Positions 12,944-43,665 are shown, numbered from the stretch's first letter. The stretch is DNA of 64,000 nt from a virus (IMGVR_UViG_3300032038_000042), one strand, 5' to 3'. Made by a program: numbers and translations. The notes: generated from the sequence alone by a model not told the origin.

Positions 12944-12958
12944 AATGACAATTATAGT

Positions 12959-15046: not shown

Positions 15047-18000
15047 TTGAATATTATGTTAACAGCTGAAACTAAAACAAGCACACTTTGGAAAGCCCAC
15101 AAAGGTTGGGGTTCTACACATACAGAAAGAGAAACATTTGAAGAGTTATATAGATCTTTTAAAGAAATTTCTAGTAACTCGATTTTAGCTTACGGAGATT
15201 TACTTCCAAGAAAACCTACAGACCAGTTTTTTGAGGATGTAAAAGCGCTCGATGCTACAAACGATACTGTTTACTATAAAGAGTCTTCTTTTAGAACTAT
15301 TCCTTTAATCAAAAAACATGTTAATGTAAGACTTACACCTGTTTCGCAGAATTGTGATCATGCATTCGTTATTGCAGATGTAAAAGGTAATCAGATTAAA
15401 AATATCATTCCGTACGATTTTAGTGATAGTGGAATTTACAACTACAAGCTTACGGACTTTTATGGTAATGAAATTCCATGGGGTATTTGCGACTGGGTTA
15501 TAGATACCAACTCTAGTTTGTTAACATTTAACAATGGAATACCAGACACTGTTAGTGCAGCTTATCCTCCAAAATTAACTTTTTATCAGTACATCGGACC
15601 TGTTGGAGAAAGACATTATATAGATGCTGTATTGTTTGATATTACAGAAGCTGTTTACGAACCATATAAACCGGTTTTGGATATTACAGATCTTGTATCA
15701 ACTCAACTTGATCAAATTGAAAAGGACTTTTTTAACAAAACAAAATTCTCCGGAGATGATACAAACCCTGGTATTGGTTTACAATATAACGTCTTATCTA
15801 ATGTAATTAAAACTGCGACTCAAGATCCAATAAAAGGTTACGACGATAATAGTAAAGCTCAAGTTGTAAGTTTAATTTCTCATTTAAAAGGTTCTACAAC
15901 AGATGCAGAAGTTCTATTTGTAAGTGAAGGAATTGATACTTCAAAAACATATAATATTCAAATAGAAGAAGGTGCAGCCGAAAAAGATAATATTGCTAAA
16001 ATAGAAACTGAAGATGGTTTTTTCATCATCCGAGGTTTGCCAGGAAATTATCAAGTAACAGTAGAGGAAGATCAAAGAGCATATGCAGCTCTTTTAGTTA
16101 AGGATAACGATACTCAAGAATACGAGGTTTTTTATCCAAGAGAAGAGTTAAATGTTACTTTAAAACTTCCAGTATTTGTAGATTTAATTAATTTCCCTCC
16201 ACATTTAAAGTTAACTACATTAACATCTTACTCGGATCACATTACACCACAATTTTACGGTCCACGTGTTGCGGACTTTGTAATTGCAGCAGGTAACTCT
16301 ACAGTTAATTGGCGTTCTGCAGATTATGTAGTTTACAATTATGAGGGTTTTTTCTTAAGAGATGCAATCGCAGCAAGAGAAGGTAATCACATTTTCTTAA
16401 GAAACGGTATTTACGAAAATGATAATAAAGAATTGCTCATTCCAAACAACATTTATCTGCACGGTGAATCTCGAGAAGAAGCAATCATTAAAAATGCAAA
16501 AATTAGATTAGGTAAAGATGCAAGCTTAGATACTCTCAGTTTTCAAGACTGCGAAGTAATAGTTGATAGTTATGCAGCAATAAAGAATTGTAATTTTACA
16601 AATACTCCAGTTTATGTAAGAAATGGACAAAAAACAGCTGTAATGCATGGTTGTTCTTTTGAAGATTTGGAAATAGATGGAAACGATCACATTGCAGATT
16701 CTCAGGTTTTACGATTAAAGATAACAGGTTCTGCAAACTTGTTCGGTACAGCTGTTGTTGAAACTTTAGATGTAAATAACGGAACTTTTGAAGCATTCGG
16801 GTCTTACATAAAGAGTTTTAAGCACACAGATGGAACATTTTACATAAACTCATGTAACATCGGAACATTAAATGTAATAAATAGTAGCAAAAATTCTGTA
16901 TTAAATACAACTGCAATCGGTTATGTTGAAAATCTTCCAGACTTTATCAAAATCGATACGAGTTATGTAACAAAGTTTTCTGACAAAATTACAAGAAGAG
17001 TTTATCCAGATGAAGCTACAATTCCGTATTACTCAAGTTTCGAAAGAAGAGTTTACGCAAAGTTACCAGATCCATTCTTATATGATGAAGAAACAAATAA
17101 ATTAAATATAAAAATCGATACAATTGAGCATACGATTTTTATTAACAAAAACGGTGAACTTCAATGTAGATTCTTCTCTGCAGATGAGATTTGGATTAAA
17201 GATCCCGATATTTTTAAAACTCAAATTGAAGATGTTTACAGTGAACATGCAGATACAAAATTAGATCATCCAAAGCCAATTCATGTAGAAGAGGCTTTAG
17301 TTGATATATACTGGTCTAAAGCAGATTTAAAAAATGGTAAAGTTCCAATCAGTCAACTTCCAGATTCTGTTGCTTACGGTGGTTTAAGTTTAGTTGGAAT
17401 GTGGTCTTTTGAAGACAGCGAAGGTAAATATCCAACTTTTGCAGATGTAGATACTCAATTTGGATCTGATGACGAATATACAGGGTTACAAAACGGTTGG
17501 TTCTTTATTGTAAGTGCATCTCATGCAGAAGATGATCCAGTTAAACCTCAATATTCAGAAGATGGTGTTGAATGGACTGCGGGTGACTGGATTATTTATA
17601 CAGGTGGAAAAAAGCATCTTATAGACTACTTAAAACCAATTCGTTTCTTGTATAAAGGTCAAAATGCAAGCTTACTAGAGAGTTCAAACGAAACTGTTAC
17701 GTATGAAATTCCATTAGAAAAGATAAAGCATGAAGTTTCTGGGGATGGAAGTTTTGAAGGCTCTTACGAAGGTAGCTATGAAGGTTCTTACGAGGGTAGT
17801 TACGAGGGAAGCTCAGAATCGAGTGGTGGAGGTGTTACTGTAATTGATTATGGTACAGTAACAATTGATAAAGAAGGAAAAATTGTAAAGACTTATAACT
17901 TACCTCGTACTTTTACAATTGGTAAGCTATTAAAAGATGTTCCTGGACTTTATATTCGAGAGTATCAATACTCAATGGTATCAGATGGAGATAGCTGGTC

Positions 18001-19771
18001 AAAATTAGATAGAGCTTATCTCGACCCTGTATACTCAAGATTACCAAACTTAGCAACTGCTGCAGGTGCAGACAATCCACAATGGTCTATTGAAGATGGA
18101 GGAACAGGTCTTTTAAGACTTTCTTATAAGTCCCTTGCAGAAGCAATTCGCTTAATTAACGAAACTCTTTTAAAGCTTTCTCCGGATAGACCTACATCTA
18201 TTCAAAACATCGATGTAATTTTTGATGAAGAAAAAACTACAGCTAAGCTTATAGATGTATATCCTATCAGTACAGGTTTGCAATTAAATCAAGTTATTAA
18301 AGAAAACGAACCTTTACATTATTATGATTCTGATTCCGGAAAAATATGCTTTAAGCAAAAAGGTGATCATGATTATTTACCTCTTGAGAATTGTTTTTAC
18401 TGCGGTACTTCATCAACAATAAAAGTTTTAGACTACGAAGGAGACAAAACAGAGGATGTTACCGATAAATATGCAACAATCGAAAGGTTTGATCCTTATC
18501 AAAAATACAGATTAGGTTTTAGAGCACCAACTGTAATGGATGCTGCAGAGGTATCTGGTACAATAAATCTCGGAGAAGGTGATTTTAGAGTTGCTCATAA
18601 GGTAAGGTTTGTACAAGAGGATTTAGTATGCACACCACAAGTAACAGACTTAAAAGAGACTTTAGAAGGTGAAACACGTTCATTTATAAGCTTTGTAGAA
18701 AGTAAAATTTATAAATTCGAATCGATAAAAGTTCAACCGTGTACAGCTCAAACAGTTAACTTGCGTGTCTTGAATACTTTCTTAAACTCTTGTAGGACAG
18801 GTGGATACGGATACGTACCAAACGGACAAAAAATTACCGGTACATTCTTAATTAAAAACTTTACAAAATACGGAGTTGTAGGTAAGGATGCTAATATCGA
18901 ATTAGCAGCTACATTTGCAGGTATTGATTTACCAATTACAATTGAATCTCAAACATTACTTGAAACAGATACAACGTACGAAACTTTTGATTTGGAAGTT
19001 GCATTTACTACTACTTTGCCAGCAGAAAAGGATTATTACGATAGTCAATTGTTGGTAACTGTAAGCGCAAGAAACTTCGATCAAGAAATTAAAAATGAGC
19101 AAGTTTTACTTATAAAAGATTTAATTACAATCAATCCCGATTCAATTCAAAAAATTGTTGAGCCAAGTGGTGCACTACTTTATCCGACTCTTGGAAGAGG
19201 TTCAAATACTTTCGGAGATGAGTATTTAGGTAAAACAGTTCTAAATGTAATCAATAGTCCAGAGCTTGTTTGGGAAGAAAACGGTTATGGTTGGCCAAAA
19301 AGGAGTAAGTTTGTAGATAGATTTAACTTACCAGAAAACGATTATGCAATTCCGGAGCAGAATGGTATAATTGTAGGTGACAATACCTATAGGTTTGTTT
19401 GCTATAAGTTTAGTTTTGACAAAATTCAGGATTTGTGCGGCTTTAATGTAAATTTTGAATGGGCTGAAAACGAACCTAAGTTAAAATCTATAGATGGTAC
19501 TTACGAAAACATAATGCTTCAAGTTTGTGTAGATTCTTTAGAAGCAAAACATAAATATTTGTTAAACGGAAATAAAGCAGTTCCAGTTTTCTTTGAAGCT
19601 ACTTTTGAACAAGATGAAACTTGCAACCACCCAGGAAAAAGTAATTTAACAAAACGAAGAATTACATTTGGTAGAAAACCTATTCCTATACAAGATATTT
19701 ATATAAGAGTTGGTGTTGCAAAAGATTCAGGTGTTAGAATTAAAAAATGCTATGTGACAACAGAGGAGTAA
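15047..19771 (+). CDS. Giant tail-fibre / tailspike-like protein with a parallel beta-helix (pectate-lyase-like depolymerase) region and a (GSYE)n repeat
   Basis: 1574-aa ORF with a TTG start at 15047 (the first ATG is at 15056). Residues about 430-620 show repeated NxxIxG / N-rich beta-helix rungs (…NAKIRLGKDASLDTLSFQDCEVIVD…NCNFTNTPVYVRNG…). GSYEGSYEGSYEGSYEGS lies at nt about 17758-17810. Confidence 0.6.
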   Translation: MNIMLTAETKTSTLWKAHKGWGSTHTERETFEELYRSFKEISSNSILAYGDLLPRKPTDQFFEDVKALDATNDTVYYKESSFRTIPLIKKHVNVRLTPVSQNCDHAFVIADVKGNQIKNIIPYDFSDSGIYNYKLTDFYGNEIPWGICDWVIDTNSSLLTFNNGIPDTVSAAYPPKLTFYQYIGPVGERHYIDAVLFDITEAVYEPYKPVLDITDLVSTQLDQIEKDFFNKTKFSGDDTNPGIGLQYNVLSNVIKTATQDPIKGYDDNSKAQVVSLISHLKGSTTDAEVLFVSEGIDTSKTYNIQIEEGAAEKDNIAKIETEDGFFIIRGLPGNYQVTVEEDQRAYAALLVKDNDTQEYEVFYPREELNVTLKLPVFVDLINFPPHLKLTTLTSYSDHITPQFYGPRVADFVIAAGNSTVNWRSADYVVYNYEGFFLRDAIAAREGNHIFLRNGIYENDNKELLIPNNIYLHGESREEAIIKNAKIRLGKDASLDTLSFQDCEVIVDSYAAIKNCNFTNTPVYVRNGQKTAVMHGCSFEDLEIDGNDHIADSQVLRLKITGSANLFGTAVVETLDVNNGTFEAFGSYIKSFKHTDGTFYINSCNIGTLNVINSSKNSVLNTTAIGYVENLPDFIKIDTSYVTKFSDKITRRVYPDEATIPYYSSFERRVYAKLPDPFLYDEETNKLNIKIDTIEHTIFINKNGELQCRFFSADEIWIKDPDIFKTQIEDVYSEHADTKLDHPKPIHVEEALVDIYWSKADLKNGKVPISQLPDSVAYGGLSLVGMWSFEDSEGKYPTFADVDTQFGSDDEYTGLQNGWFFIVSASHAEDDPVKPQYSEDGVEWTAGDWIIYTGGKKHLIDYLKPIRFLYKGQNASLLESSNETVTYEIPLEKIKHEVSGDGSFEGSYEGSYEGSYEGSYEGSSESSGGGVTVIDYGTVTIDKEGKIVKTYNLPRTFTIGKLLKDVPGLYIREYQYSMVSDGDSWSKLDRAYLDPVYSRLPNLATAAGADNPQWSIEDGGTGLLRLSYKSLAEAIRLINETLLKLSPDRPTSIQNIDVIFDEEKTTAKLIDVYPISTGLQLNQVIKENEPLHYYDSDSGKICFKQKGDHDYLPLENCFYCGTSSTIKVLDYEGDKTEDVTDKYATIERFDPYQKYRLGFRAPTVMDAAEVSGTINLGEGDFRVAHKVRFVQEDLVCTPQVTDLKETLEGETRSFISFVESKIYKFESIKVQPCTAQTVNLRVLNTFLNSCRTGGYGYVPNGQKITGTFLIKNFTKYGVVGKDANIELAATFAGIDLPITIESQTLLETDTTYETFDLEVAFTTTLPAEKDYYDSQLLVTVSARNFDQEIKNEQVLLIKDLITINPDSIQKIVEPSGALLYPTLGRGSNTFGDEYLGKTVLNVINSPELVWEENGYGWPKRSKFVDRFNLPENDYAIPEQNGIIVGDNTYRFVCYKFSFDKIQDLCGFNVNFEWAENEPKLKSIDGTYENIMLQVCVDSLEAKHKYLLNGNKAVPVFFEATFEQDETCNHPGKSNLTKRRITFGRKPIPIQDIYIRVGVAKDSGVRIKKCYVTTEE

Positions 19772-27009: not shown

Positions 27010-27196
27010 ATTTTTTTTAAAAATTTAAACTTTTTTCAAAATCTTCAGCTGAAAAAGATGTAAGAGCTAATACAGAAAAAATCAATTCAATTGAATTCTT
27101 TTTCAGAGATACAATCATAAACGAAAAAATAGGAGAGGAAAAATAAGAAGATATCTTTTTTAAGAATCTATCAAAAGCAACTAACTATATTAAATA

Positions 27197-27243
27197 TTTG
27201 ATAGAAGATACATTCAGTATTGACTGTCAAATCTTATATTATT
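27197..27243 (+). promoter_or_regulatory. Sigma70-like promoter upstream of the NAD salvage operon
   Basis: TTGACT - 17 nt - TTATAA, followed by the AAGGAG SD and the ATG at 27261. Confidence 0.4.
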
Positions 27244-27260
27244 TATAAGGAGAAAACATC

Positions 27261-28550
27261 ATGTGGAAAATTCACGGAGAAATGGTCTCTAACGAAAGAG
27301 ACGTAATGGAACATTTTGGTCTAAAATACCCACCTATTGTAAAATCACTTTTGGATACCGACTTATATAAGTATAGCATGGGCCAAACGTATCATCATCA
27401 ATTTGGAAATCTAAAGACAACTTGGGATTTTAAAGCTCGCAATGTTGGCGAAAACACAACTCACACTTCTATCTATACAGAAGAGGACAAAAAAGAGATA
27501 AACAATCAGCTTTGCGCTTACGCAGCACTTCGTTTTGATGAAGATGAATTGCAATATCTCAATGCAAAATGTCCTTGGATTAAGCAAGATTACATCAACT
27601 TCTTGCGCTTTTGGCATCCACGCCTAGAAGACTTTCAATGCACAACTAACAACAAGTTCGGTAATGGAATTATGTTTTTTGGTGTTCAAGAGTATATTGA
27701 ATACTACGAGATTCCAGTCCTCGAAATTTTTGCCGAAGTCTATTACAGAAACCACTACAATTATGATGAGCTTCTTGCAGGTTTCAAAGAAAAGACTAAC
27801 GAAAAAATCGCTGAAATGAAGAGCAACAAAGACCTTCATTTTGGAACTTGGTCAGAGTTTGGAGCACGTCGTCGCCTTTCATTTGAAGCTCAAGACTGGT
27901 TGATTGGTCGTCTTACAGAAGAAAAGCTTCCAGGTTTTATTGGAACTTCAAACGTTCTTTTGGCAAAAAAGTATAAAGTCACACCTGTTGGAACTTGTGC
28001 TCATGAATTTATTGAATGCGTTGGCCAGGGAAATCCAATGTACAATCCAGCTTACAGCAATAAGATTGCAATGGAAGCTTGGATAAAAGAATATGGTGTT
28101 TGGAACGGAATTTGGTTGACTGACACTATTGGTGATGAACTTTGCCGTAGAGACATGCAAAAAACTTATGCAACACTTTTCAGTGGAGTTCGTAACGATT
28201 CCGGAGATCCATTTAAGTGGGCAGATGATTGGATAAATCATTATACCAATCTTGGAATTGATCCAAAAACCAAAACTTTGCTTTTCAGTAACAGTATAAA
28301 TTCTCTTGAGCTTTGGTCAAAGTTGTGCTTTTATGTCGAAGGTCGTGCTAAACCTGCTTTCGGAATTGGAACGTATTGGTCTGGCCCGCAAACTATTGAT
28401 CCTCTTAACATTGTTGCAAAAGTCGTTCTTGTAAATGGAAAAGATGTTGCAAAACTTTCTGATGATAGCGGAAAGACAATGAGTCGTAGTCAAGAGTATG
28501 TTGATTACCTTCGCAGAACTCTCGATTGGCGTTTAAAATCTGAGGAGTAA
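27261..28550 (+). CDS. pncB: Nicotinate phosphoribosyltransferase
   Basis: ...SLLDTDLYKYSMGQTYHHQFGN... matches the PncB N-terminal signature (E. coli ...[20 protein letters not shown]...). The 429-aa length is typical. Strong SD. Confidence 0.8.
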   Translation: MWKIHGEMVSNERDVMEHFGLKYPPIVKSLLDTDLYKYSMGQTYHHQFGNLKTTWDFKARNVGENTTHTSIYTEEDKKEINNQLCAYAALRFDEDELQYLNAKCPWIKQDYINFLRFWHPRLEDFQCTTNNKFGNGIMFFGVQEYIEYYEIPVLEIFAEVYYRNHYNYDELLAGFKEKTNEKIAEMKSNKDLHFGTWSEFGARRRLSFEAQDWLIGRLTEEKLPGFIGTSNVLLAKKYKVTPVGTCAHEFIECVGQGNPMYNPAYSNKIAMEAWIKEYGVWNGIWLTDTIGDELCRRDMQKTYATLFSGVRNDSGDPFKWADDWINHYTNLGIDPKTKTLLFSNSINSLELWSKLCFYVEGRAKPAFGIGTYWSGPQTIDPLNIVAKVVLVNGKDVAKLSDDSGKTMSRSQEYVDYLRRTLDWRLKSEE

Positions 28551-28553
28551 AAA

Positions 28554-29135
28554 ATGATTACACCAAAACTTTTGAATAAAACAAAAGAAGTAGACCTTAT
28601 CAAAACTCCAGTCTTTACTGTTGTTGAAAAAGAATACGAAAATCTGGAATTCAAACCAGTAGGATTGAATTGCAAAGATTGGGTAATGGTTATTGCTAAA
28701 GACTCAATTTCAGATCCAGTCTGTGTTTTTGTAAAGCAAACAAGATGGGGTTGTGAGCATTCCACAATTGAATTTCCTTGCGGTACAGTAGACTTAAATG
28801 AAAGTCCTGTAGAAGCTGCAGTAAGAGAATTTCGAGAAGAAACAGGTATTGAGGTTGCACAATCTTCGTTAAAAGAGATTGCAACATTCAATCCAAATCC
28901 AGCTTACTTTAACAATCTTATGCACATTTTTGAATTTGTAGACAGAGGTTTGTTGAGCAAGTTCTTAAATAAGAAAAAGCAAAAGCTGGATAAAAACGAG
29001 GATTGCGAAGTCTTTGTTGATAGACTTGAAAATCAAGCAACACTCTTAAAGAAAGGTGGAATGAGTTTAATTGGATATGTATATGCTTCAAAAGTAAATA
29101 CATCTGCAAAGTACGAATTGAAGGAGATTAAATAA
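28554..29135 (+). CDS. Nudix hydrolase
   Basis: Perfect Nudix box GTVDLNESPVEAAVREFREETGI (Gx5Ex7REUxEExGU). Confidence 0.75.
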   Translation: MITPKLLNKTKEVDLIKTPVFTVVEKEYENLEFKPVGLNCKDWVMVIAKDSISDPVCVFVKQTRWGCEHSTIEFPCGTVDLNESPVEAAVREFREETGIEVAQSSLKEIATFNPNPAYFNNLMHIFEFVDRGLLSKFLNKKKQKLDKNEDCEVFVDRLENQATLLKKGGMSLIGYVYASKVNTSAKYELKEIK

Positions 29136-29136
29136 C

Positions 29137-29712
29137 ATGAAAAATAAATTTTTAGTTGTAATTGATATGCAGAATGATTTCTGTACAGGTGCTTTGAAAA
29201 ACGATGATGCAGTAGCTGTAATTCCTTTTATTAAAAAGCAGATTGAGGAAGCTCGTAAGAATGGTACTCGAATTGTTTATACTCGCGATACTCACGGAAG
29301 CGATTATATGGAAACACTCGAAGGAAAGCATCTTCCATTTCCTCACTGCTTGAATGAATCCTTTGGTTGGGAAATCGTAGATGAACTTAAACCAGTTAAT
29401 CCGATAGTATTTGCTCCCTTTGGAGTTATTTGTAAGATGATTGAGAATGATCCAAAAGCCGATATTGTTGTAAACAAAAATCATTTCGGTTTTGATGGAT
29501 GGAAACATCTCATTCCAGAAGATTCAGAAGTAACAATGGTTGGAACTTGTACAGATATCTGCGTGGTTTCAAACGCATTAGCTATTAAGACTATTGAAGG
29601 TGTTGAAGTAACAATTCTTGCAAATGGTTGCGCTGGTTTGACAAAAGAAAAGCACGAACATGCTCTTGATGTAATGGAAAGTTGTCAGTGTAAAGTTGTT
29701 AGAGGAGAGTAA
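29137..29712 (+). CDS. pncA: Nicotinamidase (isochorismatase-family cysteine hydrolase)
   Basis: FLVVIDMQNDFCTGAL aligns with E. coli PncA LLLVDLQNDFCAGGAL. Catalytic Cys context ...VGTCTDICVVSNA. Confidence 0.75.
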   Translation: MKNKFLVVIDMQNDFCTGALKNDDAVAVIPFIKKQIEEARKNGTRIVYTRDTHGSDYMETLEGKHLPFPHCLNESFGWEIVDELKPVNPIVFAPFGVICKMIENDPKADIVVNKNHFGFDGWKHLIPEDSEVTMVGTCTDICVVSNALAIKTIEGVEVTILANGCAGLTKEKHEHALDVMESCQCKVVRGE

Positions 29713-29714
29713 AA

Positions 29715-30524
29715 ATGGGTCCAAAAAAGTTCGATGTAAAAGAAGTTCACGACGAGATTATTGAGTTTATTAAAGACTTCTTTAAGGATAAAAATGGTCC
29801 TGCTACATTAGGAATTTCCGGGGGAAAGGACAGTACCATTTGTGCAGCTTTGTTAGCAGAAGCTTTAGGTCCAAAAAGAGTTGTTGGCGTAATGATGCCA
29901 AACGGTGTCCAGATGGACCTTAACGACTCTGTCAAAGTTTGTGAACTTTTGGGAATTCAGGCAATGAAAGTAAACATTGGTCCAGTTTACGATGCTTTGA
30001 GAGATCAGATTGATACATCTGATATTAAAGAGTCTCCTGATCAGTGGACACCTCTTTTCACAACAAATACTCCTGCACGACTTCGAATGGTAACACTTTA
30101 CGGTATTGCTGCTCAACTTGGCGGCTTTGTTTGCAACACTTGCAACTATTCAGAAGACTTTGTCGGTTACTCTACAAAGTATGGAGATTGTTGCGGAGAC
30201 TTTTCTTTATTGAATCAGCTTACAAAAACTGAAGTTGTTGCTTTAGGTGACTATATGAAACTTCCAAAAGAGTTAGTTCATAAAACACCTTCGGATGGAA
30301 TGTGCGGAAAGAGTGATGAAGATAATATGGGCTTTACATATGACTCTTTGGATACTTTTATCAGAACTGGATTAGCTCCAAAATCATTTGAAGTTTATAA
30401 CAAAATCAAAAAGATGCATCTCAATCCAAATACAAAACTAAAGTTGCTGCCAATGTCTTATCCGGAATTGCATTTGGAAGAAAATTGGAAGTTTGAAGAC
30501 CCAATTGGAGAAGTTTTAGCTTAA
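29715..30524 (+). CDS. nadE: NH3-dependent NAD+ synthetase
   Basis: PP-loop GISGGKDSTICAALL (SGGxDS). The 269-aa length matches NadE. Confidence 0.75.
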   Translation: MGPKKFDVKEVHDEIIEFIKDFFKDKNGPATLGISGGKDSTICAALLAEALGPKRVVGVMMPNGVQMDLNDSVKVCELLGIQAMKVNIGPVYDALRDQIDTSDIKESPDQWTPLFTTNTPARLRMVTLYGIAAQLGGFVCNTCNYSEDFVGYSTKYGDCCGDFSLLNQLTKTEVVALGDYMKLPKELVHKTPSDGMCGKSDEDNMGFTYDSLDTFIRTGLAPKSFEVYNKIKKMHLNPNTKLKLLPMSYPELHLEENWKFEDPIGEVLA

Positions 30525-30554
30525 AATTAAAGTACGTAAAATTTTAAACAGTAA

Positions 30555-30590
30555 AAAAGCCTAGGAACGAATCCTAGGCTTTGCTTTTTT
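30555..30590. terminator. Bidirectional intrinsic terminator (AAAGCCTAGGA / TCCTAGGCTTT + TTTTTT)
   Basis: Perfect 11-bp stem with a 5-nt loop and a T-run, between convergent genes. Confidence 0.65.
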
Positions 30591-30903
30591 AATCTTTCAA
30601 GATTTCAATTCCGTATCTTTCACAGACTTCGTGTTCAATAAAACAACCATTAAAGTTTTGCCAATTGTCACCGAAAATTACAGCATCTGCTTCTGAAAGC
30701 TTCATAAGTGATTTACCCAACCACCAAACAGGTTCTGTAACAATGTTGTCTTTGTTTTTTGGTGCATCTGTGAAGAAAGAATCGATAACTTCTAGATCCT
30801 CTCCTGCGATCTTTTCTGCTGCAGCAATCAAAGCATTTCTTTCTTTTAGAATTTCTTCATCTGTCTTACCTCTCATAGGTTGGCTAATAAATAATTTCTT
30901 CAT
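30589..30903 (-). CDS. DUF4406 / nucleoside 2-deoxyribosyltransferase-like small protein
   Basis: MKKLFISQPMRGKT... resembles the second copy at 43231 (MKKKVYLSGPITAD...), the M-K-K-h-Y/F-h-S-G/Q-P-M pattern of this fold. Confidence 0.4.
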   Translation of the reverse strand: MKKLFISQPMRGKTDEEILKERNALIAAAEKIAGEDLEVIDSFFTDAPKNKDNIVTEPVWWLGKSLMKLSEADAVIFGDNWQNFNGCFIEHEVCERYGIEILKD

Positions 30904-30957
30904 TAATTACTCCTTATAGAAGAAGTATAGTAAACTAACTGTAGATTTTAGTCTTTT

Positions 30958-31272
30958 TTAACTCGCATTAAGCTGCCAATCTAAAACACTTAACTTTTTA
31001 ACTTCATCTTCTAATTTCTCAATACGAATTCTATTTTCGGCTATTTGCTTATCGTACTGATAAATGACAATTGAGCAAATATCTTCGACAGTTCTTTTTA
31101 ATTTTTCGTCTAAAGTAGCTTGTGCATACGATAAAATTGCAGCAATTAGTTCTTTATTTACATCTGGAAATTGCTTAAAAAGTTCTTTTTCAAAAGTCTC
31201 TTTTTTGATCATCAGAATTGTCCTTTTAACGTGCTTATTAGAAAGTTCCGACATTTCTTGCTGTATATACAC
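30958..31272 (-). CDS. Hypothetical protein (104 aa)
   Basis: ORF only. Confidence 0.35.
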   Translation of the reverse strand: MYIQQEMSELSNKHVKRTILMIKKETFEKELFKQFPDVNKELIAAILSYAQATLDEKLKRTVEDICSIVIYQYDKQIAENRIRIEKLEDEVKKLSVLDWQLNAS

Positions 31273-31344
31273 TATATTAGTTGAAAAATTGAAATGTTTT
31301 TAGTCTGACTTACTATATTATATAAGGCCTACAGGAGGGAGCTT

Positions 31345-31716
31345 ATGAATCAACTAAAAAAATTAAATGCAATACACAAAGGAATAATGGTCTTTGTTGC
31401 AAGTGAGGTTGTTGAAAAAGCAAGAGAACTTTCTGAAGGTTGGAACAAAGGAGAACATATTCAACACAATTCGGACTCTTTACAGGGGCAAATAAACATT
31501 TTTCAAAGACAATTACCTAATACATTAAATGCTATCGAAAATGAAGATAAAGATTTGATCAAAAAATCTTTAGATATGTACAAGAAAGATAGAGAAAAGC
31601 TAAAATTCGATATTCAAAAAGATAAAATCAAGAGAGAGCTTTTTGACTCTTTAAACGATTATGTTGAATCATTGAATGATTGGATTACTGTTTTAGAGGA
31701 TGCTCTTGAAAGTTAA
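31345..31716 (+). CDS. Hypothetical protein (123 aa)
   Basis: GGAGGGAG SD 6 nt upstream. A promoter-like TTGAAA ... TATATTAT lies upstream. Confidence 0.45.
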   Translation: MNQLKKLNAIHKGIMVFVASEVVEKARELSEGWNKGEHIQHNSDSLQGQINIFQRQLPNTLNAIENEDKDLIKKSLDMYKKDREKLKFDIQKDKIKRELFDSLNDYVESLNDWITVLEDALES

Positions 31717-31776
31717 CATAGCTAGAAAAACTTTTTATTTAAAAAAAGCATTCTAGAGAATAATTCTGATTAGTTT

Positions 31777-32427
31777 TCAGTAAAAGGTAAAAAACAAACC
31801 TGTTAACTTTTCTATTTCAGTAACAGTAGTTTCTCTGCATTCGTTTTCCTGAGTAAAAATAAAGCATTGAAGCACTTTATACTTTTTGTTATAAAAGATT
31901 TTAAAGAACATTTCAGGTACAACTATATAACCATTTTTGCTTGGAATCTTTTTAGTATTTTTACCAAAAATTGGTCCACAACAAACATCTATCCAACCTA
32001 AATCCTGGGCATAAGCGTGAGCAGCTTCCTCGTAATCTTTCCAAACTCCTGCGTTTAGTTTATGAGTTTGAGGACAGATATTACACATCCTAAAAGTATC
32101 CTTTGAATGTTCTAAATCCCAGTCTCTATCATTGCATGGACACATGTGACCCCTATCGTACTTTGTATTTGTATAAGAATTGTGCTTTTGAGTATTTTTA
32201 CATTCTACAAAATTACTTGGTCTTTTTATTTTCGAAGCTTCCGATGCTGCAGCTTCTTTGTCTGTAAGTCTCCAAATAACAAAATCGGGGTTTTGTTTTT
32301 GTACATTATAACTTACGATATATGTTTTATGCTCATGTACAGGGTATTTACCTTTTACAGAAATATCTTGAGCGTTTAAGTATAAAACTGAAAAAAGAAG
32401 AGTTGTAAATAAAATAAATCGTTTCAT
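31777..32427 (-). CDS. Secreted DNA/RNA non-specific endonuclease (Serratia NucA family)
   Basis: DRGHMCPCNDRD... (the DRGH active-site motif) and a classic signal peptide MKRFILFTTLLFSVLYLNAQ. Start trimmed to the internal ATG at 32427. The upstream part of the 286-aa ORF is unlikely to be coding. Confidence 0.65.
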   Translation of the reverse strand: MKRFILFTTLLFSVLYLNAQDISVKGKYPVHEHKTYIVSYNVQKQNPDFVIWRLTDKEAAASEASKIKRPSNFVECKNTQKHNSYTNTKYDRGHMCPCNDRDWDLEHSKDTFRMCNICPQTHKLNAGVWKDYEEAAHAYAQDLGWIDVCCGPIFGKNTKKIPSKNGYIVVPEMFFKIFYNKKYKVLQCFIFTQENECRETTVTEIEKLTGLFFTFY

Positions 32428-32512
32428 ATTTAAAATTAGTTTGAAAACTGCGTACCGGAAAAGCCTATATTGTATATGTATTGTATTTTTGGGAATCCAA
32501 AGGAGATAAAAA

Positions 32513-33169
32513 ATGAAAAGTATTAGACAAGGAACATTTGAAACAAACAGTTCAAGTGCACACTCAATGGTAGTACCAAATATTAAAAAAATTGAAATTG
32601 ATAATTTCAATGCAGGTAAAACTTGGTATTGCTGCATTGATCACAATCGTAATAAACCTTTCTGGACGACAGCTGAACTTGTAGAAGAGTTGAAAAAATC
32701 GACTAAAACAGAAGAATTCGAGCGTTTGTCTGTAGGTTATGTTGACTTGAAATTCTCTCCTGTATATAATCCTTTTGAAGGTATTTGGAATACTTGGAAC
32801 TTGACTAAAGATGAAGAGCAAAATGTAATTGAGGATTTTGAAAACTTCAAAAGTTATTTTGCAGAAAACATTTCAGAGGATATGTTTGAATGGGCATTCA
32901 GCGATTCAAAAGAGAAAAAGTATTTTTCAAAGTATTTGATTAGAGCTTTCATTAGATTTTGGATTGAGGAAGTTTGGTATTCTCCTTTGTTGAAGATTGA
33001 CGATTTAAGTAAAGAAAACTGGGGAAACGATATTTCAATTCAGTTAAACGGTGGAGATTACGATTACGATAGAGGAAGTTTCAAATTAAAAGATGGTAAA
33101 TTGGTTCCATTTAATGAGAAGTGGGAAGATGGTTGTGATTACGAGTTTGCAATTAATTTGAGGAATTAA
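32513..33169 (+). CDS. Member 2 of the MKSIR-xx-TFETNSSS-xHS family (218 aa)
   Basis: N-terminus MKSIRQGTFETNSSSAHSMVV. GGAG SD upstream. Confidence 0.55.
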   Translation: MKSIRQGTFETNSSSAHSMVVPNIKKIEIDNFNAGKTWYCCIDHNRNKPFWTTAELVEELKKSTKTEEFERLSVGYVDLKFSPVYNPFEGIWNTWNLTKDEEQNVIEDFENFKSYFAENISEDMFEWAFSDSKEKKYFSKYLIRAFIRFWIEEVWYSPLLKIDDLSKENWGNDISIQLNGGDYDYDRGSFKLKDGKLVPFNEKWEDGCDYEFAINLRN

Positions 33170-33173
33170 AAAA

Positions 33174-33407
33174 ATGGCAAATAAAAAACCTTTGGAACTT
33201 GGAATTGGAATTACAAACAACGTTTACGCAGGTCATACCCGTGAACTTAAAAACGGTGAAAAAGTCTGGACGTCTAAAGAAGATGTAACTTCCGAGTTCT
33301 ATAAAGCAATGTTAGATTTGCTTATTGAAAACGGTAATACGTTGCAAGTCTCCGGAAAGAATGATCCGAACTTGTATACAATAAAGTTGGAGATAACTAA
33401 AAAGTGA
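33174..33407 (+). CDS. Hypothetical small protein (77 aa)
   Basis: ORF only. ATGA overlap with the next gene. Confidence 0.4.
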   Translation: MANKKPLELGIGITNNVYAGHTRELKNGEKVWTSKEDVTSEFYKAMLDLLIENGNTLQVSGKNDPNLYTIKLEITKK

Positions 33408-33913
33408 AAGATTGGGATAAAACCTTTATCGAAATAGCTGAAAAGTTTGCTGAACATTCTACCTGCGTAAAAAGACAGGTAGGAGCCGTACTTGTAAAAG
33501 ATTTAAGAATTCTTTCTACTGGCTACAACGGTACTCCATCCGGTTTTTGCAATTGTAAAGATGTTTTTGAAAACGGTCCAAAAGAGATAGCTACTAAAGC
33601 GATTTTTTACAAAAACGATTTTCCAACCTCATTAAACAGTAAGAAATCTTCTAAGGGTTATTACTTTACTCATCACGAATTTGCAGAGAGGTTTGAAATT
33701 CATGCTGAACAGAACTGTATAGCTTTTGCTGCTAAAAACGGAGTAAGTACAGAAGGTTGTACAATTTATGTAACTACTGCTCCTTGCGTACACTGCGCAA
33801 AAATAATTATTGCAAGCGGAATAAAAAAAGTTGTATACAAAGAGATCTATAAAGATGACTTCGGTATACAACTTTTGGAAGAAGCTAATGTTGAAGTATT
33901 AGCTATAACTTAA
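33404..33913 (+). CDS. dCMP / cytidine deaminase-family zinc enzyme (dCMP deaminase-like)
   Basis: ...HAEQNCIAF... and ...TTAPCVHCAKIIIASGIKKVVY... form the H(A)E ... PCxxC zinc-binding signature. Confidence 0.7.
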   Translation: MKDWDKTFIEIAEKFAEHSTCVKRQVGAVLVKDLRILSTGYNGTPSGFCNCKDVFENGPKEIATKAIFYKNDFPTSLNSKKSSKGYYFTHHEFAERFEIHAEQNCIAFAAKNGVSTEGCTIYVTTAPCVHCAKIIIASGIKKVVYKEIYKDDFGIQLLEEANVEVLAIT

Positions 33914-34605
33914 AAATTAATTGTAAATGCAAATGTAAAACCACCTGCAGCAGTAGCAGCCCCACCAATACCTAATAAAAGGTTTTTAATATTTTGTTGC
34001 TCATCGGTCCAAATTGGTAAGCATCCTATAACAAGACAGGGTACACCAACAGCGAGTTCCACATATGCGGTTGTACGAAGTCTTTTTTTCATTTTTTCAT
34101 AAGAAACAACAAGCTCATTTAACTTTTTTATTTTTTCATAAAGCTCTCCAAGTTCCGCAACTACGACTGAAGTGTCTTCCTTATTGCTCAGAAGAGCTTG
34201 TTTTAACTCTTTTAAGGTTTTCTTCGAGTTCTCCAATTCTATTTTCGTATTGAGTAAACCTTCTTCGAAGCTCAATGATGATTTGGCTGCTTCCTCGTAA
34301 TTCTTCTGTGCCTTGTCTAATTTCATCTCTAATAGATCTAGCAGTTCGAATGGATTCATCGATTCCAATTCCGACTGAGTCAAGTTGTCCTTCGAGCTGT
34401 TCACACTGCTCAATTCTGGCTTGTAGCTCTGATTCAAGTTCTCCGACTTTTTCTGTGAGTTGTTCGACTTGTTGCTCAGTTCTAATGCTGTCCTCTGAAA
34501 CTCTTCCAAATCTGATGAATCTTCCTGCGCAAAAGCAGGCGATACCAAACACAATAATACACCCAAGCTTAATAAAAAACTTTTTATCGATCTTAATCTC
34601 CACAT
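33910..34605 (-). CDS. Secreted/membrane coiled-coil protein (231 aa)
   Basis: ATG at 34605 with AAAGGAG 6 nt upstream. Signal peptide MWRLRSIKSFLLSLGVLLCLVSPAFAQ. Hydrophobic Gly/Ala-rich C-terminus ending in F. A second coiled-coil ORF in another frame (34181-34603, GTG start) overlaps. Confidence 0.45.
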   Translation of the reverse strand: MWRLRSIKSFLLSLGVLLCLVSPAFAQEDSSDLEEFQRTALELSNKSNNSQKKSENLNQSYKPELSSVNSSKDNLTQSELESMNPFELLDLLEMKLDKAQKNYEEAAKSSLSFEEGLLNTKIELENSKKTLKELKQALLSNKEDTSVVVAELGELYEKIKKLNELVVSYEKMKKRLRTTAYVELAVGVPCLVIGCLPIWTDEQQNIKNLLLGIGGAATAAGGFTFAFTINF

Positions 34606-34728
34606 TGCTACTCCTTTTTCTTACTTAAATTTAGTTTGCTGGAAAAATGAAGTCTTTTTAGACTATAATTACTGTTAATTACTACTATTACTGCAACCGG
34701 TTTTTCGTAGTTGCAAAAGGAGTAAAGA

Positions 34729-35445
34729 ATGTCTAAATTCACAGGAAAATGCGATCTATACGATTCAGCTTTTATGCTTCAAGATGATCCTGAGGACTTT
34801 GTAAAAAACTCAGTTTTTTATCTTGAAGGAGGTAAGTTAGATGTTAAGACTGCAAAGGATCTAATTCCTTATTGTACACATTTAACAGCAGTTGCAGCTT
34901 ACTCAAAAGACTCAGGTAATACAATTCATCTTTCAAGAGATTCTTTTATCGATTCAGAAGAAAGAAATTTTTTAAGCTGGAAAATAATTGATGCAATTAA
35001 AGCTGCTCGTAAAGCAAAAAAAGAAAAGAAAACTTTTGATTTTGAGTATCTAAAAAATTTTTGTAAAGAGGTTAATTCGTTTTACCCTTGGATACCAATT
35101 ATTGAGACTATCAACAAAAACCCAGATTTATTGAAGACTCATATTCCAGCAGATTACAGAAGAGCTTATCACTTTTTTGAGAGTTGGATAATTCCAGAAT
35201 ACTTTAGCACTTTGCACGATGCAATGCACAATCGATTTAGAGAAGATTTTTTGAAGTTTGCAAAAGAAAACGGGTATGCTGTTGCAGATTGGAAAGGTAA
35301 TTACGAGTACAATAAGTTTACAGACGGAATTTACCATCCAATAATTTCTCATATGTGCTTGAGTGTTGCAGAATATTATAAAACAATTGATAAAATTAAA
35401 AAAGATTATAAAGCTTCGGAAGAGGCTTATAACATCGGAGGATGA
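34729..35445 (+). CDS. Hypothetical protein (238 aa)
   Basis: AAAGGAG SD. Confidence 0.5.
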   Translation: MSKFTGKCDLYDSAFMLQDDPEDFVKNSVFYLEGGKLDVKTAKDLIPYCTHLTAVAAYSKDSGNTIHLSRDSFIDSEERNFLSWKIIDAIKAARKAKKEKKTFDFEYLKNFCKEVNSFYPWIPIIETINKNPDLLKTHIPADYRRAYHFFESWIIPEYFSTLHDAMHNRFREDFLKFAKENGYAVADWKGNYEYNKFTDGIYHPIISHMCLSVAEYYKTIDKIKKDYKASEEAYNIGG

Positions 35446-35449
35446 AAAA

Positions 35450-35668
35450 ATGCCAAAAGTTCAAGAATGGGAGTTGAATGGGCTATATAAGAGAGTATCA
35501 ATTGCAATGAGCAGATTTCCAAACTTAAGATACGGACAAGCAATTTTTAACGAAGCATATTCCTTATGGCCTGACTTCGTAAACACTATTAGAGGTACGG
35601 ATGATGATTGTTTTTACGACGATGAAAAGGTTAAGGATTTTCTGAAACACTTTGAGGTTGAAGGATGA
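35450..35668 (+). CDS. Hypothetical small protein
   Basis: Trimmed to the ATG preceded by GGAGGA. The longer ORF would overlap the previous gene. Confidence 0.4.
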   Translation: MPKVQEWELNGLYKRVSIAMSRFPNLRYGQAIFNEAYSLWPDFVNTIRGTDDDCFYDDEKVKDFLKHFEVEG

Positions 35669-35853
35669 TAAAGAGTTTGCACAGTGCACTGTTTAATGAA
35701 ACAGAATTGAAAGATATTGAAGATTGTATCACAGCTTACTTGCTCTGCGACTTTGGGCCCCAAGATATGGAATTAATGACTCAAGCAGCTGCTCAAAGAG
35801 AAAGAGTACTTGAGTTGCAAAAAGGTATTAAAGAGATATTAAAGGAGGAGTAA
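35665..35853 (+). CDS. Hypothetical small protein (62 aa)
   Basis: ATGA overlap. Confidence 0.35.
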   Translation: MIKSLHSALFNETELKDIEDCITAYLLCDFGPQDMELMTQAAAQRERVLELQKGIKEILKEE

Positions 35854-35854
35854 C

Positions 35855-36448
35855 ATGTATTATCCAAACGGTAATTATAGACTTACACAATTAATTAAGG
35901 ATTTCGAAAGTGGCGATTTCGACATTTATCTTGAAAAAAATGAAGATCCTCCAAAGGATTGGGATTGGAAAAAGCAAGGTTTTTACAGAGGTCCTTCTAA
36001 GCTTATAGAATCAATTGAAGAACTAAAAGATGCAGTTGTAAAAGATATGGGTACAGAATACACAATTTGCATTGAAGCTCGTCCATCTTATTACGCTAAG
36101 CATCCATACGAAGGAGAGAGCAAATCCTATACAAAAGAAGTTTTTTATTGGGAATACGCATCACATTACGGAAGAAAACTATATTATGCAATAAGAGACT
36201 GTACATACCTTAAAGGTTACGAACCAAAGTATAAATCTCTTGGACTTGATTGCTACGAAAATGGTTTTAACGGAACATGTTTTCAAATTGGTTCGTGGGA
36301 AAGAGGTAAAGAAGGTTACGAGTTTAAGTCTTGCGGTAGCAGACTTTTTGAGTATATCGAACCTGAGGATTTGGAAGTAATTTTTAATGCAGTAAAAGCT
36401 GCAGATAAATACTTAAATGAAAGGTTTCATAATGAGGAGGAAAATTAG
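35855..36448 (+). CDS. Hypothetical protein (197 aa)
   Basis: GGAGGAG SD. Confidence 0.5.
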   Translation: MYYPNGNYRLTQLIKDFESGDFDIYLEKNEDPPKDWDWKKQGFYRGPSKLIESIEELKDAVVKDMGTEYTICIEARPSYYAKHPYEGESKSYTKEVFYWEYASHYGRKLYYAIRDCTYLKGYEPKYKSLGLDCYENGFNGTCFQIGSWERGKEGYEFKSCGSRLFEYIEPEDLEVIFNAVKAADKYLNERFHNEEEN

Positions 36449-36450
36449 TA

Positions 36451-43230: not shown

Positions 43231-43665
43231 ATGAAGAAGAAAGTATACCTAAGTGGTCCTATAACTGCTGATAAAGAGCATTATAAGGAGCATTTCGCAA
43301 AAATCGAAGAGTATCTCACAAACTTGGGATTTGATGTAACAAATCCATCTAAAGATGAGTACGATGATGAAATCGCAAAAGATCACGAAGATAAGTGGAC
43401 AAAAGAAGCTTGGCTCGATTACATAAAAAGAGATATTGAGCTTGTTTCTAAACACGACATTGTTTGTGTTTTAAAAGGTTGGCAGAAGAGTTTAGGTGCT
43501 CTTATGGAGCTTGCTGTAGCAAAGCGTTACGGAATACCAATCATGATTGAAGGTGAAAATAAGATTTACACAAAATGGGATTTTCAGTTCTGCGGTTTGG
43601 GAGTAGACCCTCTCGAAGGATATTCAATTCAAAAGGAGATAGATGATGCTAAATCAGGAAGTTGA
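43231..43665 (+). CDS. DUF4406 / nucleoside 2-deoxyribosyltransferase-like protein
   Basis: MKKKVYLSGPITAD... Second copy of the fold seen at 30589. Confidence 0.45.
   Translation: MKKKVYLSGPITADKEHYKEHFAKIEEYLTNLGFDVTNPSKDEYDDEIAKDHEDKWTKEAWLDYIKRDIELVSKHDIVCVLKGWQKSLGALMELAVAKRYGIPIMIEGENKIYTKWDFQFCGLGVDPLEGYSIQKEIDDAKSGS

Follow-up and report, generated by a model that had tools for sequence, protein, structure and literature searches.

Li et al. 2024 (Microbiome, PMC11662467) described 174 'NAD-jumbo phages' that carry salvage or Preiss-Handler routes to NAD+. A pncB-nadD-nadE cluster was reported, for example in Kuafu_71, and a phage pncA is mentioned. The work was bioinformatic, and the genes were framed mainly as metabolic support, complementary to host pathways. 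Three further pathways reconstitute NAD+. NARP1 consists of Adps and Namat and NARP2 of Nampt and Nmnat (bioRxiv 10.1101/2024.02.11.579819), and NARP3, the third, of PnuC and NadR (PMC13464706). All three defeat NADase defences experimentally (bioRxiv 10.1101/2024.02.11.579819; PMC13464706).

Two cultured jumbo phages also carry a gene set of equivalent function. In Sinorhizobium phage Phosso (PV764938, gp366-377) it comprises NadE, PncB, a MutT-like Nudix protein, an NMNAT and a PncA-like 'hydrolase', with tail and head-adaptor genes at its flanks. Agrobacterium phage Atu_ph07 (NC_042013, gp236-242) encodes a PncA-like protein, a cytidyltransferase, a NUDIX protein annotated as 'ADP-ribose pyrophosphatase' in GenBank, and PncB. 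Both clusters span 5-7 kb of a >450-kb genome. The same enzymes are found in bacterial niacin-salvage operons, where a Nudix-fold gene sits between pncB and pncA. That gene encodes NrtR, a winged-helix regulator whose Nudix box is often degenerate. In the NadM-Nudix proteins and KVP40 NatV, a bifunctional NMNAT-ADPR pyrophosphatase, an ADPRase-type Nudix domain is coupled to NAD salvage by being fused with the adenylyltransferase, and Nampt is its partner in the amidated route.

The locus examined here lies in a 64-kb stretch of DNA (64,000 nt, IMGVR_UViG_3300032038_000042), referred to as the window. It encodes PncB, a Nudix hydrolase, PncA and NadE. We consider it probable that these genes form a jumbo-phage operon for deamidating (Preiss-Handler) salvage of nicotinamide to NAD+, most likely sustaining NAD+ in infection. 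Like the gut phages of Li et al., the source is metagenomic and >200 kb, with clustered pncB and nadE and a proposed NAD+ supply of its own. Their cluster contains nadD and lacks Nudix and PncA, whereas the operon has PncA and an ADPRase-like Nudix. Judged by the pncB/nadD/nadE criterion of Li et al., pncB and nadE are present and nadD was found neither in the window nor in the 9 kb upstream (source contig 394.5 kb). Phosso and Atu_ph07 resemble the operon in clustering PncB, a PncA-like isochorismatase, a Nudix protein and an adenylyltransferase (plus NadE in Phosso). They differ in that their proteins are 27-36% identical to those of the operon, their Nudix proteins fall in another subfamily, which lacks the N-terminal β-domain, they encode their own NadM/NadR-type adenylyltransferase (xQPxHxGH), and their NAD genes are interspersed with others and form no tight operon. 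The preliminary description had presented a PncA/PncB/NadE route as a different solution, a claim of novelty that is overstated: Li et al. 2024 (PMC11662467) already reported this kind of route, Phosso and Atu_ph07 carry the gene set, and NARP3 has been published as a third reconstitution pathway. Not yet described in the literature are the linked ADPRase-like Nudix and the decay of NadD.

Features of the NAD+ salvage operon and its flanks (positions counted from the first nucleotide of the window)
Feature	Position	Strand	Size	Basis or detail
Candidate -10-like box	27186..27191	+		TATATT; upstream alignment
Leader hairpin	27196..27232	+	37 nt	downstream of -10-like box
PncB Shine-Dalgarno	27247..27252	+		AAGGAG
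PncB, nicotinate phosphoribosyltransferase	27261..28550	+	429 aa	TIGR01514, Pfam, PDB match
Nudix hydrolase, ADP-ribose / NDP-sugar pyrophosphatase type	28554..29135	+	193 aa	profile, motif, predicted fold
PncA, nicotinamidase	29137..29712	+	191 aa	Isochorismatase, PDB match, phrog_19305
NadE, single-domain ammonia-dependent NAD synthetase	29715..30524	+	269 aa	TIGR00552, PF02540
Bidirectional intrinsic terminator	30556..30582	both		11-bp stem, 5 G-C pairs, T-runs on both strands

The four ORFs are consecutive on the + strand (27261-30524), with intergenic gaps of 3, 1 and 2 nt. Each is preceded by a Shine-Dalgarno sequence (AGGAG, GAGGAG or AAGGAG), and an SD-like core occurs at 47/80 window genes versus ~9% of random positions. 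The terminator, a strong one, begins 32 nt past the NadE stop and is shared with a convergent DUF4406 gene (30589-30903, - strand). The tight spacing and the stem with its T-runs bear out the earlier picture of four SD-led genes ending at one terminator. The sigma70-like promoter of that picture was not recovered. A scan of the 251-nt intergenic region (27010-27260) found 0 canonical sigma-70 sites on the + strand, and promoter-like sites were no more common than in shuffles (10 observed, 13.0 expected). Alignment of upstream regions revealed a conserved -10-like box with the consensus TATA(A/T)T, which reads TATAAT in three relatives (L004, L005 and L011), and no recognisable -35 was found upstream of it. 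The box is a candidate promoter element.

The leader hairpin has an outer stem of 9 bp, a 2x2 internal loop, an inner stem of 5 bp and the loop ATTCA, and its MFE fold has z = -2.2. Across 4 loci the 14 pairs are paired in 100% of cells, with compensatory changes in 4 pairs, and all one-sided changes yield G.U on the sense strand. There is 1 copy per locus, each time upstream of PncB, and no Rfam family matched. By its position the hairpin would open the operon transcript or lie close to its 5' end.

All four gene identities first assigned from the sequence alone were upheld by profile searches (PncB, NUDIX, Isochorismatase and NAD_synthase), each above the Pfam or TIGR cutoff cited, and the catalytic motifs are intact in all four proteins on alignment. 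PncB scored 314 bits over the whole protein with TIGR01514 (cutoff 269.55) and has the two-domain architecture NAPRTase_N (PF17767, 58.3 bits) plus NAPRTase (PF04095, 169.7 bits). It matches PDB 1yir at 4.5e-62, and the phage Nampt family phrog_448 at only 1.6e-8. The motifs GTCAH248EF (aligned with GTMAHEW of 1yir), FGARR, RNDSGD and GIGT are kept. We take the GTxAHE histidine to be the autophosphorylated His, as in Salmonella and yeast NAPRTase.

PncA was identified by Isochorismatase (89.8 bits, cutoff 27) and phrog_19305 (1.4e-31), and its best PDB match is the P. horikoshii pyrazinamidase/nicotinamidase 1ilw/1im5 (2.4e-12). It falls below the equivalog NF008623 (45.4 bits vs cutoff 174, over the N-terminal 58 residues only), and as a sequence it is divergent. 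The Asp-Lys-Cys triad D10, K114 and C142 is nevertheless invariant in 10/10 phage sequences. A pairwise alignment to 1im5 put K100, in a lineage-specific insert, as the lysine, unlike the K114 of the family alignment. The metal ligands D51, H53 and H70, equivalent to D52, H54 and H71 of P. horikoshii PncA, are invariant in the same 10 sequences. A metal-binding Asp/His/His set separates nicotinamidases from other isochorismatase-like hydrolases.

The gene set recurs in relatives. All four genes occur in identical order in L005 and L011, and L004 has PncB-Nudix-PncA with NadE displaced, so the association is more than chance. A five-gene set including NadD is found in L008 (NCBI GCA_902725545.1, 295 kb) and L010. 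All four genes are under purifying selection (dN/dS 0.05-0.37): PncB at 0.08-0.10, the Nudix gene at 0.05-0.08, PncA at 0.26-0.37 and NadE at 0.10-0.22.

In the pathway we propose, PncA would convert nicotinamide to nicotinate (NA) and NH3, and PncB would join NA to PRPP, with ATP, to give NaMN. An adenylyltransferase, here most likely the host's essential NadD, would form NaAD, from which NadE would make NAD+ using NH3 and ATP. The Nudix enzyme is predicted to cleave ADPR to AMP and ribose-5-phosphate, which may re-enter PRPP via host Prs. Nicotinamide and ADPR, the two compounds that NAD+ glycohydrolysis yields, would both be handled by the operon, which would most likely keep up NAD+ during infection, also after NADase-type immune effectors fire. 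We infer the substrates, the dependence on host NadD, the link from ADPR to PRPP and the counter-defence purpose, the last being plausible.

It is possible, though rather unlikely, that the same enzymes serve another purpose, as a general auxiliary metabolic module not aimed specifically at NADase immunity. Such a module would raise the NAD+ available to a phage that is large and replicates slowly, and to its NAD-consuming enzymes, or would complement hosts whose niacin salvage is weak. This is how Li et al. 2024 (PMC11662467) read phage Preiss-Handler and salvage genes, and it suits the neighbourhood, which is one of nucleotide metabolism (TK, dUTPase, deaminases and NDT-like genes) with no defence or anti-defence families nearby. 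Against it, the two compounds released when NAD+ is glycohydrolysed are precisely those on which PncA and an ADPRase act, a match better explained by recycling after cleavage than by net synthesis, and NARP1-3 show anti-defence selection on the rebuilding of NAD+ by phages. Both purposes could hold at once.

The recycling of ADPR would depend on the Nudix protein, which had been proposed to act on ADP-ribose or cyclic-ADPR-derived signals. Its assignment as an ADP-ribose-type enzyme was supported: the box is intact and the best profile and Foldseek matches are all ADPRases or NDP-sugar hydrolases. Pfam NUDIX scored 42.6 bits (cutoff 21.1). The Nudix box GX5EX7REUXEEXGU is complete from G77 to residue 98 (TVDLNESPVEAAVREFREETG), and R91, E92, E95 and E96 do not vary across 47 family members. 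When the family profile was compared with the PDB, the best 19 matches were all ADPR or ADP-sugar pyrophosphatases (top 8.6e-15). With the AF2 model (pLDDT 90.4), the best 50 Foldseek matches were all ADPRases or NDP-sugar hydrolases over the full length (TM 0.62-0.80), including the GDP-mannose hydrolase YffH. The protein has the full-length ADPRase-type fold with its N-terminal β-domain, and ADPRases are closer than MutT-type enzymes. It scores far under the NCBIfam cutoffs for NudE (NF008736, 44.1 vs 169) and YffH/AdpP (TIGR00052, 25.7 vs 79.55), and forms a separate family with members from metagenomes only. The gene co-localises with NAD genes in L004, L005, L008, L010 and L011. ADPR is the predicted substrate, specificity being more than a sequence can fix.

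An improbable alternative is that the Nudix protein does not recycle ADPR, but instead regulates the operon in the manner of NrtR or destroys immune signals derived from ADPR (cyclic ADPR isomers or His-ADPR, for example). It is the most constrained protein of the operon, which would suit such a role, and in bacterial pncB-nrtR-pncA operons NrtR is often annotated as an ADPR pyrophosphatase (PMC2330246). A regulator is hard to reconcile with a fully intact Nudix box in a stand-alone protein of ADPRase type, features that, with the viral context, set the operon apart from its bacterial counterparts. In the AF2 model the Nudix fold is followed by only ~35 residues (two short helices), too few for a winged-helix domain, and none is present. 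The NrtR-like 2fml ranks many orders of magnitude behind ADPRases, and the leader palindrome does not match the NrtR core GT-N7-AC. As for signal destruction, phage enzymes have been reported that break down the ADPR-based signals of Thoeris and supply NAD+ synthesis (PMC13232231); our data lend this reading no specific support. An ADPR-recycling Nudix also differs from NatV in standing alone, with no adenylyltransferase in the window.

The adenylyltransferase was searched for in several ways. The 64-kb window contains no HxGH motif in six frames, no CTP_transf_like Pfam match, and no tblastn match to a relative's NadD. NadD is intact in L005, L008 and L010 and disrupted in L011/L012. It adjoins the NAD module in most relatives, and this lineage lacks it at the locus. 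The preliminary description had the NaMN adenylyltransferase step missing and borrowed from the host. The first part stood for the window, while borrowing is no design feature, most relatives' modules having NadD. Since none is encoded in the window, the step is most likely carried out by the host's NadD. Because relatives carry their own, this reliance is plausible and would be specific to the lineage. NadD is missing from the window and disrupted in L011/L012; the remaining four genes thus persist where NadD is decaying. Loss or pseudogenisation of phage NadD in parts of the clade may reflect streamlining toward the host enzyme.

NadE scored 154.3 bits with TIGR00552 (cutoff 63.65) and matched PF02540 NAD_synthase and phrog_11189 (7e-48). 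It has the PP-loop SGGKDS at 35-40 and lacks a glutaminase domain. Its PDB matches are the archaeal 2e18 (8e-32) and the Francisella 3fiu (5.8e-31), at about equal similarity. The second match raises the quite improbable alternative that NadE amidates NaMN, as the Francisella NMN synthetase with its partner NadM does (PMC3376133), and that an NMN adenylyltransferase completes the route. The NadM/NadR-type enzymes of Phosso and Atu_ph07 would fit such a route. However, the top match is an archaeal-type NadE, and the single-domain NadE of M. jannaschii is truly NaAD-dependent, without NMN synthetase activity (PMC3376133). The NadD of close relatives carries GGTFDPFHxGH (NadD-type), which fits NaMN to NaAD to NAD and favours NaAD over NaMN as the probable substrate.

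A phage origin, as first proposed, agrees with the genome context. The exact genes of the operon, PncB included, lie on a 394,539-bp metagenome contig (k141_2087336). Close relatives comprise IMG/VR viral contigs as well as a clade of discrete 377-404 kb genomes recovered from many samples, among which two assemblies of 397.6 kb are circular permutations of each other. The 56 neighbouring proteins include 30 PHROG families. About two thirds of genes are ORFans, and no cellular housekeeping, ribosomal or core-metabolism genes are present in the window. Homing endonucleases are inserted within the NAD module of relatives. A phage-like, non-chromosomal context is strongly suggested, and unproven because the window plus 9 kb upstream (~73 kb) yielded no capsid, portal or terminase gene. 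That the segment belongs to a bacterial chromosome, megaplasmid or other giant element with ordinary niacin salvage is very unlikely: such virion genes were not found in relatives' flanks either and bacterial pncA-pncB-nadE-type operons are common (PMC2330246), but against this stand the viral relatives, the recurring and permuted contigs, the ORFans, the many PHROG matches and homing endonucleases, and Nudix and NadD families with essentially no named cellular members above ~35% identity.

Compared with NARP1-3, the operon would share the phage-encoded restoration of NAD+, and like NARP1 it would in principle handle ADPR and nicotinamide. No component is homologous, none of NARP1, NARP2 or NARP3 being found in the operon or window, and the predicted intermediates are NA, NaMN and NaAD. 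From its genes alone, the route would need a host adenylyltransferase and Prs. It may be slower than NARP1 because several ATP are spent and a host enzyme is needed. We tentatively suggest, as less than an even prospect, that the operon is a fourth, mechanistically distinct route of phage NAD+ reconstitution, recycling both NADase products, dependent on host NadD, and with a transcript led by a covarying hairpin. If so, it would shield jumbo phages from NAD+ depletion of the Thoeris, DSR and SIR2 types.

Four open reading frames on the + strand encode PncB, Nudix, PncA and NadE. Gaps of 3, 1 and 2 nt lie between them, and each ORF is preceded by a strong Shine-Dalgarno (SD) sequence. SD-like cores were found at 47/80 genes of the window compared with ~9% of random positions. 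The operon follows an AT-rich intergenic region of 251 nt, and a terminator hairpin begins 32 nt past the NadE stop codon. The four consecutive SD-led genes with one terminator, as given in the preliminary description, were thus recovered, except for the proposed sigma70-like promoter. A promoter scan of the upstream region found no sigma-70 site on the + strand, and the whole region contained 10 promoter-like sites where shuffled sequences gave an expectation of 13.0, i.e. no enrichment. TTGACT at 27220 with TATAAG 18 nt downstream was rejected as a promoter since its -10 element overlaps the SD sequence, so that the transcript would begin downstream of it. The terminator is shared with a convergent DUF4406-like gene, one of two such genes in the window. 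In phage Phosso a nucleoside deoxyribosyltransferase (gp366) also adjoins the NAD module.

Features of the NAD+ operon and of other genes in the window
Feature	Position	Strand	Remarks
GGDEF-domain protein, 354 aa	63-1127	-	possible nucleotide cyclase; several PHROG families of unknown function match
GT2 glycosyltransferase-Stealth_CR2 fusion, 562 aa	5686-7374	-	adjoins a second GT2 gene
1571-aa ORF	15056-19771	+	no match by Pfam, PHROG or tblastn to deposited phages
Topoisomerase IB, eukaryote-type, 562 aa	21708-23396	-	full-length; Topoisom_I_N + Topoisom_I + Topo_C_assoc
TATA(A/T)T box	27186-27191		no -35
Leader hairpin, 37 nt	27196-27232	+	in the PncB leader
PncB, 429 aa	27261-28550	+
Nudix, 193 aa	28554-29135	+
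PncA, 191 aa	29137-29712	+
NadE, 269 aa	29715-30524	+
Terminator hairpin, 11 bp	30556-30582		G+C-containing; T-runs on both strands
DUF4406/nucleoside 2-deoxyribosyltransferase-like	30589-30903	-	convergent with NadE
DUF4406/nucleoside 2-deoxyribosyltransferase-like	43231-43665	+
Thymidine kinase	49068-49643	-
dUTPase	50090-50608	-
RtcB RNA ligase	61197-62291	+	tRNA-Arg follows directly
tRNA-Arg(TCT)	62697-62771	+

The enzymatic interpretation of the operon is well supported. Profile searches, matches to solved structures and intact motifs agree on the four identities first proposed, and alignment showed that the catalytic motifs of all four proteins are in place. PncB scored above the curated equivalog cutoff of TIGR01514 (314 bits vs 269.55), contains both NAPRTase domains and can be aligned over its whole length with solved NAPRTases (1yir, 4.5e-62). 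It keeps the GTxAHE motif, whose histidine is H248, along with other motifs. NadE exceeded the TIGR00552 cutoff (154 bits vs 63.65). With an SGGKDS PP-loop and no glutaminase domain, it is predicted to take its nitrogen from ammonia. PncA is an isochorismatase-family protein (89.8 bits) whose best solved relative is the nicotinamidase of P. horikoshii. Its D10, C142 and metal ligands D51, H53 and H70 are unchanged across 10 phage homologues. Pairwise alignment had pointed to K100 as the invariant lysine; among the ten phage homologues the invariant one is K114.

The Nudix box is complete. With a profile built from 47 family members, the top 19 solved structures were ADP-ribose or ADP-sugar pyrophosphatases (best 8.6e-15). 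The top 50 Foldseek matches to an AlphaFold model (pLDDT 90.4) were exclusively ADPRase or NDP-sugar hydrolase structures, and they span the full length, including the N-terminal β-domain. Both Nudix and PncA scored far under the NCBIfam equivalog cutoffs. An NrtR-like regulator was ruled out for the Nudix protein, as the catalytic box is intact and the winged-helix domain is absent. NadE could possibly be an NMN synthetase, since 3fiu was its second-best match; the NadD-type partner present in relatives disfavors this assignment. Purifying selection acts on each of the four genes, with dN/dS values against three relatives of 0.08–0.10 for PncB, 0.05–0.08 for Nudix, 0.26–0.37 for PncA and 0.10–0.22 for NadE.

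The same gene order, PncB, Nudix, PncA, NadE, was found in two related loci, L005 and L011. Both carry a NadD-type gene (MRIGIYGGTFDPFHMGH...) 3–4 kb downstream of the operon, ahead of a Band_7 gene that is also present in the window. In L004, from an 87%-identical relative, PncB-Nudix-PncA is followed by a NUMOD3 homing-endonuclease insertion and then NadE. The endonuclease gene (- strand) and three small ORFs separate PncA from NadE at 12452-14554, and a second, paralogous Nudix gene lies at 17479-18021. PncA, NadE and PncB are dispersed across ~10 kb in L002, L003 and L006. On a 295-kb contig (L008, NCBI GCA_902725545.1) PncA-NadE-PncB-NadD are consecutive, with Nudix 1.6 kb beyond, while in L010 NadD-Nudix-NadE-PncA form a tight block with PncB upstream. 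The gene sets of these relatives indicate a recurring unit of five genes, four of which are held by the window. Identity to the relatives is mosaic: 83% for PncB, 89% for Nudix, 56% for PncA and 91% for NadE against L011; only 61% for PncB, 90% for Nudix and 87% for NadE against L005; and 76% for NadE and 88% for PncB against L004. This pattern suggests gene-by-gene recombination or replacement. A 3289-aa ORFan adjoins the operon in relatives (L005 1-9261, - strand).

The fifth gene, NadD, would convert NaMN to NaAD. The preliminary description had proposed a search for a NadD-like HxGH protein. The HxGH motif is absent from all frames of the 64-kb window, no CTP_transf_like domain was found there with Pfam, and tblastn with the NadD of L005 gave no match. 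The segment from NadE to the Band_7 gene (30525-36450) contains unrelated genes. The members of the NadD cluster, together with one contig look-up, placed no NadD on the 394,539-bp source contig. In a 397.6-kb relative the gene is a pseudogene (L011 8733-10000, L012 1-76). Its start is replaced by a 1,241-bp insertion with a 337-aa ORF, and a frameshifting 4-nt insertion with a stop codon lies between IGIYGGT and TFDPFHMGH, so the called 195-aa product lacks the catalytic motif. The 337-aa ORF is a DUF7487 protein homologous to window 12362-12733. In the same region, 18 bp of the NadD 5' end recur as an inverted copy. Several further truncated variants of 195–198 aa belong to the same NadD cluster. 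Given its absence from the window and its disruption in L011 and L012, part of the clade seems able to do without NadD. Reliance on the essential NadD of the host would fit these observations, which cover all but ~320 kb of the source contig.

The window, L004, L005 and L011 share a conserved region upstream of PncB. A hairpin begins ~5 nt past a TATA(A/T)T box. All 14/14 pairs form in 4/4 sequences, compensatory double changes occur at 4 pairs and every single change gives G.U on the sense strand; two of these four sequences are nearly identical. The pairing and the nature of the changes are suggestive of a hairpin formed in the RNA, at the transcript's 5' end or close to it, where it may have a role in stability or processing. 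Rfam assigned the leader to neither an NAD+ riboswitch nor any other family. The palindrome does not fit the GT-N7-AC core of an NrtR operator, the TGT/ACA signatures of a NiaR site or the published NadR operator. Matches to a 15-mer of the hairpin in IMG/VR occurred only at a frequency judged, rather than computed, to be at chance level for so large a collection.

We felt that the operon very likely belongs to a jumbo phage rather than a host chromosome, as first described, in view of its viral IMG/VR relatives, the gene content and the recurring 377–404 kb contigs. An identical PncB is encoded on an ENA metagenome contig of 394,539 bp (ERZ27256903, k141_2087336). In IMG/VR the closest relatives, whose PncB is 77% identical, are two viral contigs (300,878 and 97,293 bp). 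Homologues of PncB, Nudix and NadD form large metagenome-only families with many members on 377–404 kb contigs from independent samples; the window's Nudix falls in a cluster represented by a protein from a 1,087-bp contig, and the listed contig data describe the representative only. Two assemblies from different samples, 397,621 and 397,595 bp, encode an identical NadD-homologue product (P0342). Their gene order agrees over ~10 kb, and this stretch lies 310 kb into one assembly and at the end of the other, which fits a complete, circularly permuted genome. By coordinate arithmetic the end of the window (58214-64000) reaches ~5.8 kb beyond the end of the 394,539-bp contig, on which the identical operon lies, so the window derives either from a different assembly or from the genome in another circular permutation.

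The 80 ORFs of the window give a coding density of 90%, and the majority have no family. Nucleotide metabolism is represented by thymidine kinase, dUTPase, dCMP/dCTP deaminase-like and nucleoside deoxyribosyltransferase-like genes. MazG, nucleases, methyltransferases, a GGDEF protein, topoisomerase IB of the eukaryotic type and RtcB with an adjacent tRNA-Arg are also encoded, and ribosomal or core-metabolism genes are absent from the window. In relatives the module is interrupted by homing-endonuclease genes. Neither the ~73 kb that was read nor the flanking DNA of relatives yielded a capsid, portal or terminase gene, including by three PHROG scans, and no hallmark gene was found in source-contig DNA flanking the window. 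DNA-level searches of the operon and L008 against deposited phages returned no match. The architecture of the topoisomerase is unusual for a phage-like genome. Upstream of the window on the source contig (L007 6083-7777), 1.7 kb without a called gene lies amid dense coding.

Phage NAD+ pathways demonstrated experimentally are NARP1 (Adps + Namat) and NARP2 (Nampt + Nmnat) (bioRxiv 10.1101/2024.02.11.579819) and NARP3 (PnuC + NadR) (PMC13464706). PncA, PncB and NadE are unmentioned in these papers. None of the three pathways shares a component with the operon or uses the deamidated route; the logic of NARP1 is similar while its chemistry and proteins differ. A wide-ranging survey from 2022 of NAD+/ADPr systems in viruses listed only NadV, NadM and NadR (PMC9503650). 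The claim of an undescribed solution was overstated. Li et al. (2024) reported complete salvage or Preiss-Handler pathways in 174/668 gut jumbo phages, with a pncB-nadD-nadE cluster named for Kuafu_71 and phage pncA noted as well (PMC11662467). Functionally equivalent clusters are present in GenBank entries of two cultured phages, Phosso (NadE, PncB, a MutT-like Nudix, NMNAT and a PncA-like ‘hydrolase’) and Atu_ph07 (PncA-like gp236, a cytidyltransferase, NUDIX and PncB), the NUDIX of the latter being annotated ‘ADP-ribose pyrophosphatase’. PncB and NadE are adjacent in the 735-kb phage LR756501. Our literature search found neither a tested deamidated-route phage pathway nor any phage nicotinamidase. 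The operon is a Preiss-Handler module, very likely of a jumbo phage, that includes a dedicated ADPRase-like Nudix but no NadD within the window. Preiss-Handler genes in jumbo phages were already known; we found no earlier description of the linked ADPRase-like Nudix as a part of the module.

The Preiss-Handler route proceeds from nicotinamide through nicotinate, NaMN and NaAD to NAD+. PncA would convert nicotinamide to nicotinate, PncB would join nicotinate with PRPP to form NaMN, the host NadD would produce NaAD, and NadE would complete NAD+ with NH3. An ADPRase-type Nudix would split ADP-ribose into AMP and ribose-5-phosphate, a PRPP precursor. Thoeris, DSR, SIR2-HerA and systems related to them have NADase effectors that yield exactly nicotinamide and ADPR. 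As both products would be consumed, the operon appears well equipped for recycling once NAD+ has been cleaved, and it may represent a fourth NAD+ reconstitution route. The main alternative is that the operon supplies a large phage with NAD+ in general, which is compatible with a recycling role.

Among the outputs of bacterial immunity against phages, NAD+ depletion is one of the most frequent. Jumbo-phage Preiss-Handler genes are known from genome surveys, and we found no published test of them against immunity. As a compact and conserved unit of four genes in 3.3 kb, the operon could be cloned and tested directly, and relatives with intact, disrupted or absent NadD provide a natural comparison for the sufficiency of the host enzyme. 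If a counter-immunity test were negative, the operon would still stand as an auxiliary metabolic module of the ordinary kind in a large phage.
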